A stretch of DNA of 32,000 nt from positions 2,529 to 34,528 of the forward strand of contig DBQN01000065.1 of NCBI GenBank assembly GCA_002305255.1, read 5' to 3'. The stretch is from Firmicutes bacterium UBA1393. Its GTDB lineage: Bacteria > Bacillota > DTU025. Below, piece after piece: positions 19,522-22,827 of the stretch; position 1 is the stretch's first letter, and each line of letters starts with the position of its first letter. The notes under the pieces were generated by a model. That model was given only the letters and a program-made list of their open reading frames with translations, had not been told where the DNA came from and ran no database searches. The position numbers and the translations under genes were made by a program.

Positions 19522-22500
19522 CTAGTTTGTGAAGATGATTCCGTCTTCGCCCAGTCCGAAACCTAGGGGCATTCCCGGCAGGGCCTTGAGGCGGAACTCC
19601 AGCCATACTCTGCCTGTAGTGTGATCGTACATGAGCGATACTTCGCGGCAGTGCAGGTCTCTGGTCACGCCCACGTTTCCCCTGGTGAAACCGCCTTTCA
19701 CCACGTCGTACACGGCGGCCCACTGCAGCAGCCAATCAGGCGAAAGCCTCAGGTCGGCCGATGTTTCAAGCCGAGACAGCCTTGATGCGGTGAAATCGTA
19801 CGTCGCGCCTGCCTTCACGTTGATCTCTGGCTTGGGCGAAGCCGACACCTTGAACGTGGCTGTGTTGTGGCTTGTCGACGCCGGGTAGAACTTCCCGGTG
19901 GCCTCAAGCGATATTCCCGGCCTCGGCGATGCCGAGGCACTGGCGGTCACGGCCCCGAAGAGGCCTGTCATCATGTCGTACGACGAACCCAGGCTCACCC
20001 TTGCCGGGCCCAGCGTTGATACGAGCGAGGCCGACACGACGCTGGAATCGGTCATCGTATCGAACCTGAATGGAGACTCGCCTGCAACGATAGATCCGGT
20101 GTACCGCACATCGAGACTGAGTCGCTCCGCCGGCGTAAGCTTAGCGCCGGCCGAGAAGGTCGCCCCTGCCCGCCCTGCCGATGCGTAGGAGTAGATGGCA
20201 GCTCGACCAGTGACGCTCGCATTCAGGCTCAGCCAGGGCGCAGGAGTGAGCGTGAGAACAGCGAGCGACAGCTCTGCCTCGCTCTTTGCCGACACGATCT
20301 CCTGCCTGATACCGCTTCGAATCGCATCTTCCTTGTACACTCCGAACAGCACTTTTCCGCCGACTGTCAGTGGCGCGGCGCCTAAGCGAAGCGGTGACAG
20401 GCTTGCCGTGAGCTCCGGTGCTCTTCTCAGCGACCGCCATGGAGGCGGTTGGGCCTCTTCATCATCCTCGTCGTCGCCGTCTTCATCTATGTACACCTGC
20501 TCCTGAAGGAGCGCGGTGTAGCTCAGATTCCCGACTGAAGTTGAAGCAGATGCCCTCAGGTTGATAACGTTCTGTTTCACCACGTCGTTCACGCGGTTGA
20601 GCCGGTAAGATCCATCTGCCACCAACTTGATGATACCGCCAAGCGTCGAAGAGTGCTTCAGCGAGGCAGTGGTGAGCTGAGAGTCGGTGACGGAATCGAC
20701 ATCCTTATGCGACAACGTCATGCTCGTTGACGCGTGGTCGCCGCTGCTCTTGAACGACAGCGTGTAGGTGTTGTCTTCAGAAGGCGTCCCGGCCTGTACG
20801 TAGTCACGGTAGGCATAGCTCGCGGCTGCGGAAGGACCGTCTCTGATCTCGCCGTCGATGGCAAGCTTCAGACTGGTGTCGACAGAAGCCGTCGATCTGT
20901 TGAACAGCTCATAAGCTGACAGGTTCAGATTGTAGTTGCCGGGCGCGTATGTGTGGTCGATGCCCAGCCCAGGCCCGAGAAGTTGAAAGTAGTCGAGGCG
21001 TATCTTGCCCCTCGATTCCGGACTGACGGTGTAGTTGGTCTCGGTGCGTACGTACCAGCCCTCCAGCGCGCTCCAGCCGACCTTGGGCATGGAGAGACCT
21101 TCGCCCTCTTTGAGGGGAATGGTCAGCTTGGGCAGGCGGAGGAGCCTCAAACTGCCCTCGTAGTACGAGACCCCGTACAGCACCACTCTGTCGTCAACGT
21201 ATAGGTCAAGCGACTCCACCGACAGCCGATAGTGCGGTTTCTCCAGCTCGCACGATGTGACGCTCGCATCCTCAAGGTGCAGCACATCGCCTTCCCGCGA
21301 AAGCTCTGTGCCTGCGACATAGAGAAAGCCCTCTACCTGATCGAGCTTGAGCTTCGCACGGGCACCGCCTACCGTCACATCGCCCGTGTCGATGTTGACC
21401 TCTGCTGACTCGCCGGCAAGCTCCTCCTGCCCCTCTGTGATGACCACGGCGCCCACGAACAATGCGGTCTTGGCCTTCACATCGATCTCTGCCCTGTCGG
21501 CCTTGATGACTGTATCATCGAAGGATACCTGCACGCCACCGCTGGCAGTCCAGAGCCCTGACTCCCCGTCGTACACTATCTGCTCGGCGGTAACATGGAA
21601 CGGCTTGCCGCCGGCGGCCTGCGCCGAGACGGGCACAGCCAAACCCAGCAGAAGCATAGCCACGAGCAAGAGCGCCATGGCCGATGGAGGCGTGGGGGGC
21701 GTCGGTGGTGTGGGGGGTGCCGGGCGCCGACGGCCGCGCCGGGGCCTCCGGAGTCCATCCACCCTCGCGATCAGCACCGCCCCCACGCTGGCCAGTGCGA
21801 TGTTGGGAAGCCACGCGGCAACAAGGGGAGGAAGTATCCCTTCCACGCCAATCGACTTGCTCACCGCTGAGATCACGTAATAGCCGAGGGCCAGCAGCGA
21901 GGCCGCGATAACGCCGAAGTAACCTCCCGCGCTCCGTGGCGACTTGGTGATTAATGGCGCACCGACCATCGCGAGCACCAGTGCGGCCAGCGGCTGCGCA
22001 CCTCTGACGTGGTAGTGGACCTCAAGTCCGCTGACACGGGTGCCGCTCCTCTGGAACAAGTCGATGGTCTGTTTCAGCTCGGCCCTAGTCATCTCGGAGG
22101 CTTCCTTCTGGCTGGAACTGAAACCCTGCATGGTAGAGTCCATGTCGACATTCAACTCGTCGAACGCGATGACCATGGTTACTCGACCCAACCGGTCTAG
22201 CTCGTGGATGCGTCCGTTCTCCAGCACCCACGTGCCCTCATCGATTCGGCCCTTTGCGGCAGTGAGCAGGCGCGGGAACGGCGCAGCCTCTGTCTCATAG
22301 ATCATGACCCGCTCGATGACGCCCGCGTCACGGTTCACATGGCCTACGTAGAAGAACCGCTCACCGGGAGCGCGGAAGAATATGTCCTGCTCCACTGCGG
22401 GCATTGACTCACCGTAGACTATCTCTCTCAAGATCCTCTGAGACTGGTGGTTGGCCCATGGGACGATGTTCTCGCTGAGCAAGTACAACCCACCGCTGGC

Positions 22501-22827
22501 AACGGTGGCCAGCGCCAGGAGAGGCAGTATCAGACGCGCGAACGCCACGCCGGCTGCCCTAATGGTAGAGAGCTCAGAGTCTTTGGCGAGGCGCCCCAGG
22601 CAAAGCATCACAGCGAACAGGACCGCGATGGGACCCGCATCTAGAACGATGCCCGGCAGACTGTAAGCGAGCATACGCACTACAGCCAGCACGGGCACGT
22701 CTCTCTGCACTATGAAGTCTACCAGCATGAACAGCTGGCCGCTGAGGACAATGATGATGAATGCCGCGATACACATGGCGAGAGGCGCAATGAACTCACG
22801 CACCACATACCTGTCGAGGATCCTCAT
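19522..22827 (-). CDS. Single ORF fusing an LptF/LptG-family permease (aa 1-357) to an LptD-like protein (OstA-N jellyroll + C-terminal beta-barrel, aa ~405-1101)
   Basis: The N-terminus 'MRILDRYVVREFIAPLAMCIAAFIIIVLSGQLF' plus a 3+3 TM layout around a ~150-aa periplasmic insert gives the YjgP/YjgQ (LptF/G) pattern. A linker 'RRPRRGRRRPAPPTPPTPPTPPS' is followed by 'MALLLVAMLLLGLAVPVSAQA' (signal-peptide-like). Then come OstA-N strands ('VIKADRAEIDVKAKTALFVGAVVITEG'), 'SVTSCELEKPHYRLSVESLDLY..LRLPKLTIPL', and an LptD-type end 'DLHCREVSLMYDHTTGRVWLEFRLKALPG'. No stop occurs anywhere in the frame. Confidence 0.75.
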   Translation of the reverse strand: MRILDRYVVREFIAPLAMCIAAFIIIVLSGQLFMLVDFIVQRDVPVLAVVRMLAYSLPGIVLDAGPIAVLFAVMLCLGRLAKDSELSTIRAAGVAFARLILPLLALATVASGGLYLLSENIVPWANHQSQRILREIVYGESMPAVEQDIFFRAPGERFFYVGHVNRDAGVIERVMIYETEAAPFPRLLTAAKGRIDEGTWVLENGRIHELDRLGRVTMVIAFDELNVDMDSTMQGFSSSQKEASEMTRAELKQTIDLFQRSGTRVSGLEVHYHVRGAQPLAALVLAMVGAPLITKSPRSAGGYFGVIAASLLALGYYVISAVSKSIGVEGILPPLVAAWLPNIALASVGAVLIARVDGLRRPRRGRRRPAPPTPPTPPTPPSAMALLLVAMLLLGLAVPVSAQAAGGKPFHVTAEQIVYDGESGLWTASGGVQVSFDDTVIKADRAEIDVKAKTALFVGAVVITEGQEELAGESAEVNIDTGDVTVGGARAKLKLDQVEGFLYVAGTELSREGDVLHLEDASVTSCELEKPHYRLSVESLDLYVDDRVVLYGVSYYEGSLRLLRLPKLTIPLKEGEGLSMPKVGWSALEGWYVRTETNYTVSPESRGKIRLDYFQLLGPGLGIDHTYAPGNYNLNLSAYELFNRSTASVDTSLKLAIDGEIRDGPSAAASYAYRDYVQAGTPSEDNTYTLSFKSSGDHASTSMTLSHKDVDSVTDSQLTTASLKHSSTLGGIIKLVADGSYRLNRVNDVVKQNVINLRASASTSVGNLSYTALLQEQVYIDEDGDDEDDEEAQPPPWRSLRRAPELTASLSPLRLGAAPLTVGGKVLFGVYKEDAIRSGIRQEIVSAKSEAELSLAVLTLTPAPWLSLNASVTGRAAIYSYASAGRAGATFSAGAKLTPAERLSLDVRYTGSIVAGESPFRFDTMTDSSVVSASLVSTLGPARVSLGSSYDMMTGLFGAVTASASASPRPGISLEATGKFYPASTSHNTATFKVSASPKPEINVKAGATYDFTASRLSRLETSADLRLSPDWLLQWAAVYDVVKGGFTRGNVGVTRDLHCREVSLMYDHTTGRVWLEFRLKALPGMPLGFGLGEDGIIFTN

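Follow-up and report, generated by a model that had tools for sequence, protein, structure and literature searches.

The 32,000-nucleotide stretch of Firmicutes bacterium UBA1393 analysed here (assembly GCA_002305255.1, contig DBQN01000065.1, positions 2,529 to 34,528; the whole stretch is hereafter the window) encodes in a single open reading frame (ORF) an LptF/G-type inner-membrane permease followed by an LptD-type outer-membrane protein. The favoured reading, to which we give a probability of roughly 65%, is that the product is a polyprotein with a retained internal signal, from which signal peptidase I releases LptD. The components are already known, and so is the fusion itself in one other phylum; new are its occurrence in diderm Firmicutes, its two independent origins from abutting genes, and a junction that, on sequence comparison, is a retained and apparently still selected signal peptide, with the polyprotein hypothesis that results from it. 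The features of the fused gene, in window coordinates, are these:

19522..22827, minus strand: lptF/G::lptD fusion ORF, 1101 codons plus stop, ATG start; protein identical in three independent assemblies
21757..22827, minus strand: LptF/G permease module, residues 1-357 (Pfam PF03739, hydropathy, AlphaFold2)
21679..21756, minus strand: cytoplasmic basic Pro-rich linker, residues 358-383, with 7 Arg, LRRPRRGRRRPAPPTPPTPPTPPS (alignments; predicted local distance difference test score, pLDDT, <50)
21616..21678, minus strand: internal signal-peptide-like segment, residues 384-404, MALLLVAMLLLGLAVPVSAQA (sequence, hydropathy, alignments, AlphaFold2)
21115..21597, minus strand: LptD-type N-terminal β-jellyroll, residues ~411-571, including the TSC...PHY junction motif (Pfam LptD_N, PDB profile, AlphaFold2)
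21250..21252, minus strand: invariant Cys526 of the TSC motif, candidate interdomain disulfide partner (alignments)
19552..21054, minus strand: LptD-type large β-barrel, residues ~592-1092 (AlphaFold2, Foldseek, DUF3769)
19648..19650, minus strand: invariant Cys1060 of the HCRE motif near the C-terminus, candidate disulfide partner (alignments)

The ORF listing and translation show no internal stop between 19522 and 22827 on the minus strand, and the frame consists of the LptF/G permease (1-357), the linker (358-383), the signal-peptide-like segment (384-404) and a 697-aa LptD-type part. This agrees with an earlier reading of the DNA made from its letters alone (the sequence-only reading), which had described a single 1101-codon ORF and whose letters for the linker, the hydrophobic segment and the sequence before an internal ATG all match ours. 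Since the contigs of three independent samples differ by 0, 0 and 2 nucleotides across the fused gene, a local sequencing or assembly error can be ruled out for it.

Residues 6-355 match the Pfam LptF_LptG family (PF03739) end to end (profile positions 1-353 of 353, E 1.6e-88, 297.6 bits against a gathering threshold of 27.9), in keeping with the LptF/G layout that had been seen in residues 1-357. Hydropathy gives the permease transmembrane segments TM1-3, a periplasmic loop of 158 aa (residues ~118-275) and TM4-6, and its AlphaFold2 model shows long helices plus six strands at 149-228, corresponding to the periplasmic β-jellyroll. The cutoffs of the paired NCBIfam equivalogs are not reached by this half (LptG TIGR04408, 207.7 against 240; LptF TIGR04407, 192.1 against 230), and the similarity of the two sub-cutoff scores points to an undifferentiated single LptF/G, which fits reports on diderm Firmicutes. 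A profile search with the LptF/G half found no second LptF/G gene in the window, the same count of one that had been made by eye. Proteins P0023-P0027 (~750-824 aa, annotated 'LptG/LptF' and matching LptF/G) appear to be tandem LptF-LptG fusions, a different fusion solution in the same transporter.

Structural comparison and profile searches confirm the C-terminal 697 aa as LptD-type; by its sequence, the barrel belongs to a divergent, DUF3769-like LptD family. A profile built from ten C-terminal halves and run against the PDB matches Acinetobacter LptD (8h1r, E 3.3e-7) at residues 155-351, a region spanning the jellyroll, the junction cysteine and the first barrel strands, and the same profile also matches several LptA and LptH chains. 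The AlphaFold2 model of this half is all-β, with a mean pLDDT of 78 and most of the barrel at 80-95; the jellyroll occupies mature residues 7-167 and is followed by ~28-30 strand elements, a figure that counts DSSP elements in the model and not the strands of a closed barrel. When the model was compared with the PDB by Foldseek, ranks 1-37 were all LptD chains (E 7.7e-24 to 8e-8), including the full-length LptD matches 4q35, 8h1s, 9kn3, 5iv9 and 7omm with ~800 aligned columns, and BtuB and MtrB came next at E 1e-7 or worse. The TM-scores to LptD are only 0.36-0.47, as expected from 10-12% identity in a flexible two-domain protein. The jellyroll, TSC junction and barrel noticed in the sequence-only reading are thus recovered both by the PDB profile and by Foldseek. 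In Pfam, residues 441-482 match LptD_N (PF03968) marginally (20.4-21.5 bits, gathering threshold 20.4), and residues 904-955 match DUF3769 (PF12600; E 1.5e-5), as do, for each family, 8 of the 10 homologues. The DUF3769 match, the sole one in the barrel region, covers ~50 of 444 profile positions and is too short to establish membership in this family, which we take to be one of cyanobacterial LptD-like barrels.

Every homologue, in sets of 20 and 19, retains both C526 (of 'TSC..PHY') and C1060 (of 'HCRE'), and C526 aligns to the A. baumannii LptD cysteine in 8h1r. Their positions presumably match those of the conserved C173-C725 interdomain disulfide of E. coli LptD, and they are a candidate pair here. 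Other proteins of the LptD-like family carry different regions in place of LptF/G: several tandem jellyroll-like repeats (~300 aa) precede the barrel in P0134, an unrelated N-terminal region of ~310 aa is present in P0092, and P0036 has another N-terminal extension.

The two halves meet at a segment with the grammar of a signal peptide. Residues 384-404 comprise an h-region, ALLLVAMLLLGLAV, a Pro at -6 and A-Q-A at -3 to -1 (P-V-S-A-Q-A), with a signal peptidase I site predicted after A404 and a predicted mature LptD N-terminus of AGGKPF... (AGGKPFHVTAEQIVYDGESGLWTASGGVQVSFDDTVIK). The likeness to a Sec signal with an A-x-A site, already pointed out from the letters, is supported by the basic n-region, the h-region and the residues at -3 and -1 as well as by the signal peptides of relatives described below; the c-regions of the secreted proteins of the window (LptA, Skp and an SLH protein) are also very similar to that of the junction. 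AlphaFold2 models the junction with low confidence, residues 358-407 having pLDDT <50, and gives the segment a helix of only 14 residues (382-395). By inspection, 20 aligned homologues share a basic tail, a hydrophobic stretch of 13-25 residues and small residues at -3/-1, and the same grammar is seen in all ten long fused proteins among the best 150 HMMER matches; Pro or Gly stands at -4 to -6 in most fused sequences. The linker and h-region sequences themselves turn over completely across homologues: the linker is 13-37 aa long and variable, has no conserved motif and is always basic (4-10 Lys or Arg). The variable, low-complexity spacer is cytoplasmic; the predicted cleavage site and the start of the jellyroll are just ~5-8 residues apart, no different from standalone LptD, and neither fused clade has a periplasmic spacer.

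The fusion is conserved far beyond this genome. In the protein database, 17 further cluster representatives of 1086-1110 aa align at 43-81% identity and 100% coverage, and four more of ~1018-1071 aa, Halanaerobium included, at 25-31% identity; altogether ~30 diverged fused homologues, with identity down to 22%, all keep a single frame. The 20 aligned full-length homologues are 26-82% identical to the query and span 100% of its length. A HMMER search of 1.84 billion representatives returned 529 family members at E <1e-30. Of the best 150 of these matches ~10 carry the fusion, the others being standalone proteins 650-800 aa long; the ten long ones, nine of them 50%-cluster representatives that add to the 20 aligned homologues, all have an LptF/G N-terminus and come from Bacillota, Halanaerobiales and Halanaerobiaceae. 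The fused homologues are annotated 'LptF/LptG family permease'.

We also scanned one genome per species with the C-terminal profile and re-analysed the 77 resulting loci in six frames with hidden Markov models of both halves. A fused single ORF was found in the closest relatives (L001-L006, L008 and L027, at least 41% identity), every member of the clade of the query being fused, and at L072, in one metagenome-assembled genome (MAG) of Halanaerobiales. In ~40 loci, among them those of other Bacillota MAGs (including Limnochordia and Limnochordales), Atribacterota and Natroniella, lptF/G is immediately followed by a separate lptD-like gene. Such separate ORFs usually overlap by 10-30 nt, and in a few loci ~3 kb lie between lptF/G and the lptD-like gene. 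At L009 (7794-7796, TAG), L032 (1175-1177, TAG), L035 (7824-7826, TGA) and L045 (7833-7835, TAA) the two genes stand in the same frame with one ordinary stop between them, a single point mutation from the fused state.

A stop of this kind in relatives means that one base error could imitate a fusion, so that these four loci would suit an assembly or sequencing error, or a decaying pseudogene joining two genes. We regard such an artefact as hardly credible, given that the fusion occurs in 8 of 8 genome loci of the clade of the query and in ~30 diverged protein clusters, that the three independent assemblies agree to within 0-2 nt, and that both halves are strongly conserved; on the independent assemblies and the deep conservation we rejected it.

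In a neighbour-joining tree of 83 LptD-like domains, a coarse one built on BLOSUM distances, the fused proteins form two separate monophyletic clades, each nested among separate-gene relatives. The two clades share ~20-26% identity with each other, and the query is ~30% identical to unfused Limnochordia-like sequences. This nesting indicates a minimum of two independent fusion events, both ancient and stably inherited since, one in the clade of the query and one within Halanaerobiales. Comparison of orthologous loci thus revealed a fusion conserved in two deep clades and not separate genes throughout, though many distant relatives do keep them separate. In ~30 separate-gene relatives the N-terminal signal peptide of LptD (basic n-region, h-region and AxA; for example MSEKAFKKRRVAITLWILPVVLVFSVYCVFLSSNSEATGA/SEP and MGKKLILILSTVILSLTVGCLAQAEG/KP) aligns with the linker, hydrophobic segment and AxA site of the fusion. 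Because they agree in alignment and in composition, we read the junction as the ancestral LptD signal peptide, translated through in frame, and the linker as its n-region. These comparisons point to a genuine, anciently fixed fusion of lptF/G with the gene that normally follows it, which arose once the stop codon and start region separating the two neighbours had been lost.

Two observations on the relatives are recorded here. In Natroniella (Halanaerobiales) two adjacent lptF/G genes precede a separate lptD-like gene (L075 5527-7849, L077 2123-4524), which contrasts with the single fused gene of other Halanaerobiales and with the 'single LptF/G' rule for diderm Firmicutes. Four loci look mis-binned or mislabelled, namely L011 and L033, of Bacillota-type arrangement and labelled Betaproteobacteria, L035 (Aneurinibacillus) and L067 (Syntrophothermus).

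LptF/G has an N-in/C-in topology in the structures of LptB2FG. Taken with the hydropathy, this places the Arg-rich tail in the cytoplasm, so that the seventh hydrophobic segment crosses outward and the LptD part is periplasmic; the fusion is topologically coherent. In the polyprotein reading, the LptF/G part would insert co-translationally as a six-helix N-in/C-in permease, after which the Arg-rich cytoplasmic tail and the seventh hydrophobic segment would act as an N-in/C-out internal signal and start the 697-aa LptD part on its way through Sec. Cleavage by signal peptidase I after A-Q-A (residue 404) would leave LptF/G with the signal peptide as a C-terminal tail and seventh helix and free LptD into the periplasm. 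Skp would then hand LptD on to BamA (the genes of both lie directly upstream), and LptD would fold in the outer membrane as the terminal translocon for lipopolysaccharide (LPS), while the separate LptC and LptA would link it back to (LptF/G)2-LptB2. A suggested benefit would be the equimolar supply of LptF/G and LptD to a homodimeric permease. Cleavage, routing, the LPS substrate and this benefit are what we infer from the arrangement.

The three options of the sequence-only reading were a polyprotein from which signal peptidase releases LptD, an uncleaved tether and internal initiation; the first is the one we favour, the second appears unlikely and the third we reject as a general mechanism. 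Uncleaved, the seventh segment would be a permanent anchor and one chain would bridge the inner-membrane permease and the outer-membrane barrel. The conservation of the single ORF fits such a chain, as do the h-regions of some homologues, which reach 20-25 hydrophobic residues, and the LptF/G-LptA-LptD fusion of Thermotoga maritima, enriched in the toga fraction and hypothesised by its authors to be an intact fusion transporter (PMC10160955). Against it, and in favour of cleavage, stands the signal-peptidase c-region, whose small residues at -3/-1 are conserved despite the complete turnover of linker and h-region. The ~5-8 residues that separate the hydrophobic segment from the first jellyroll strand argue in the same direction, for with so short a spacing and no periplasmic spacer an uncleaved chain would hold the jellyroll of LptD against the inner membrane by its N-terminal edge, where LptA docks in the canonical bridge, although the barrel has to sit in the outer membrane. 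LptC and LptA are moreover kept as separate genes, and the modelled helix, within the low-confidence region, is only 14 residues long. A permanently anchored product is therefore improbable in our view, and slightly more doubtful still is the idea that the chain forms a covalent LPS conduit across the envelope and fixes the sites of membrane contact. If this were true, the soluble-bridge model could be dispensed with for these bacteria, and perhaps for Thermotoga.

Another protease, or a partial cut, could produce a mix of tethered and free LptD, and the linker is indeed disordered and protease-accessible in the model. What is conserved, though, is the (-3,-1) site where the hydrophobic segment ends on its periplasmic side, and not a motif in the cytoplasmic linker, and we hold this route to be about as improbable as the uncleaved chain.

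Internal initiation would have LptD made mainly from the in-frame ATG at 21678 (M384) or nearby, the fusion frame being incidental. In this genome that ATG falls exactly at the start of the h-region. It is preceded by CACGCCTCCATCGGCC, in which inspection found no Shine-Dalgarno-like sequence, as had been noted before; since most genes of the window have no clear Shine-Dalgarno sequence at their naively assigned starts, its absence is weak evidence taken alone, and the start codons missing from relatives are stronger. M384 is not conserved among homologues, and neither of the fused loci L001 (62% identical) and L072 offers an ATG, GTG or TTG anywhere in its junction, so that no internal start codon is conserved and the polyprotein is favoured. 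A product begun at M384 would also be deprived of the basic n-region, and the frame is kept in every locus and protein of the fused clades despite linkers of 13-37 residues, which would be unexpected for a non-coding spacer. Internal initiation is accordingly a very unlikely source of LptD.

Some observations weigh against the polyprotein reading or its premises. The AxA site could partly reflect phylogenetic inertia, and the authors of the T. maritima work took the analogous protein for an intact fusion permease (PMC10160955). The Pfam model of the LptD barrel, PF04453 (formerly OstA_C), which the sequence-only reading expected to support the C-terminal part, matches neither the query nor the 10 homologues, only LptD_N and DUF3769 doing so, and the NCBIfam LptD equivalog NF002997 gives the query 20.5 bits against a cutoff of 683. 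The evidence of the fold and of the PDB profile outweighs the missing PF04453 match, and we keep the LptD assignment. No lpx or kds gene for LPS synthesis is present in the window, and the LPS substrate is suggested by the LptB/C/A context.

The nearest known architecture is that of T. maritima G4FGC1, a 'pABC permease' described as LptF/G, an LptA-like jellyroll and an LptD-like domain in one protein, which is conserved throughout the phylum and was recovered, toga-enriched, with the outer envelope fraction (Sexton et al. 2023, PNAS, PMC10160955). That paper contains no analysis of the junction and no discussion of processing, and concerns a phylum without LPS genes (PMC10160955). As far as its description allows the comparison, G4FGC1 and the query both carry LptF/G and LptD-like domains in one polypeptide. 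The query differs in phylum, in a junction that appears to be a retained signal peptide and in the two independent Firmicute origins. No Thermotogae were found among the matches of the genome scan or of a broadened profile search, which returned the same proteins.

With the canonical Lpt system of Proteobacteria (LptB2FGC-LptA-LptDE; 4q35, 5iv9, 9kn3) the query shares an LptF/G-type permease with a jellyroll, LptB, LptC, LptA and an LptD with a jellyroll, a giant barrel and the TSC-type cysteine. It differs from that system in having one LptF/G gene instead of an F/G pair, in encoding LptD covalently with LptF/G and in one operon with lptF/G, lptC and lptA, in the lack of a recognised LptE, and in a barrel too divergent for PF04453 and NF002997. 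Among diderm Firmicutes, a single LptF/G, reported as a homodimer by proteomics, is found together with a bamA-skp neighbourhood and no LptE in Acetonema longum (Negativicutes), whose LptD, F7NLY8, is a standalone protein of 480 aa with a predicted 16-strand barrel (Nat Commun 2026, PMC13018214). The query resembles it as a diderm Firmicute with a single LptF/G and bamA-skp nearby, whereas its LptD part has 697 aa and ~28-30 strand elements and is fused to LptF/G; its modelled barrel clearly exceeds the 16 strands of the prediction for LptD of Negativicutes. Antunes et al. 2016 reported one LptF/G for Negativicutes and Halanaerobiales, with LptD and LptE both undetectable, and LptE is reported absent from diderm Firmicutes. 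We found no earlier report of the fusion for Firmicutes, Limnochordia or Atribacterota in a comparison outside which Taib et al. 2020 and Beaud Benyahia et al. 2025 lie.

For the mechanism itself, the closest precedent that we can name comes from unrelated proteins. If the query is processed as we propose, it would be a rare natural case in which an inner-membrane protein and an outer-membrane β-barrel come from one precursor via an internal signal peptide. The cytochrome b-c1 polyprotein FbcH of Bradyrhizobium japonicum reportedly joins a polytopic membrane protein in frame to an internal signal peptide whose cleavage, shown by experiment, releases an exported protein with a function of its own, in what is said to be work of Thony-Meyer and colleagues of ~1989-1991. 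The part released from FbcH stays at the inner membrane, whereas LptD would be destined for the outer membrane, and cleavage in the query is so far predicted from its junction.

In the fused Halanaerobiales and in the clade of the query, LptD is the unannotated C-terminal two thirds of a gene called 'LptF/LptG family permease', which probably explains the published LptD gap in Halanaerobiales (Antunes et al. 2016). The fusion would give experiments a direct way into LptD biogenesis, into the ratio of LptF/G to LptD where the permease is a homodimer, and into translocons that work independently of LptE. Overlapping genes, genes parted by one in-frame stop and a fusion apparently fixed twice together form a series that is a clean example of operon neighbours becoming polyproteins. 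The 'fusion permease' of Thermotoga might likewise be read anew, as a possible precursor and not an intact bridge.

The fused gene lies in an outer-membrane biogenesis cluster in which its neighbours are all on the same strand, and its lptD part shares an operon with lptF/G, lptC and lptA. The neighbouring genes are:

23470..25275, minus strand: bamA, Omp85 barrel with 3 POTRA matches, upstream (Pfam/NCBIfam)
22865..23329, minus strand: skp/ompH periplasmic chaperone gene, immediately upstream of the fusion (Pfam OmpH, E 1e-10)
18817..19479, minus strand: lptC, 220 aa, N-terminal transmembrane anchor, AGGAGG Shine-Dalgarno sequence, immediately downstream of the fusion
18089..18820, minus strand: lptA-like gene, 243 aa, cleavable signal peptide ...SLPAAAA/KTVKV
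12715..13443, minus strand: lptB, transporter ATPase, further downstream (TIGR04406, 331 bits against a cutoff of 240)

Pfam and NCBIfam scans of the larger ORFs recognised no LptE-like gene in the window, in line with the earlier reading of the letters. The lpt and bamA genes are flanked by two ORFs, 15680-18052 and 25287-27296 (both minus; 790 and 669 aa), each with a hydrophobic segment at its N-terminus, for which Pfam, NCBIfam and PDB sequence searches gave nothing. Both are candidate lineage-specific envelope factors, of TamB-, SonA/SonB- or LptE-replacing type. Between lptA and lptB (13654-15857, minus) are an FtsE/LolD-like ABC ATPase of 306 aa and an ORF of 421 aa that matches no family and lacks a strong hydrophobic segment, and immediately downstream of lptB is a DUF3084 protein with a long coiled-coil region (11343-12698, minus). 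At 7128-11063 (minus) a secreted protein of 1311 aa has an N-terminal SLH domain and the C-terminus ...LSLKTTF; it may be an OmpM-like outer-membrane tether, but is ~3 times longer than the OmpM proteins listed for A. longum. Directly upstream of the cluster and on the same strand are genes for a SpoIVB-like peptidase (27338-29182, minus), an M23 peptidase (30522-31118, minus) and SpoIID (31143-31985, minus). SpoIID and the SpoIVB-like peptidase, with the names of related MAGs, assign the window to a sporulating, two-membraned lineage of Limnochordia-like Bacillota, and with spo genes next to an outer-membrane cluster the organism seems to combine sporulation with a diderm envelope.

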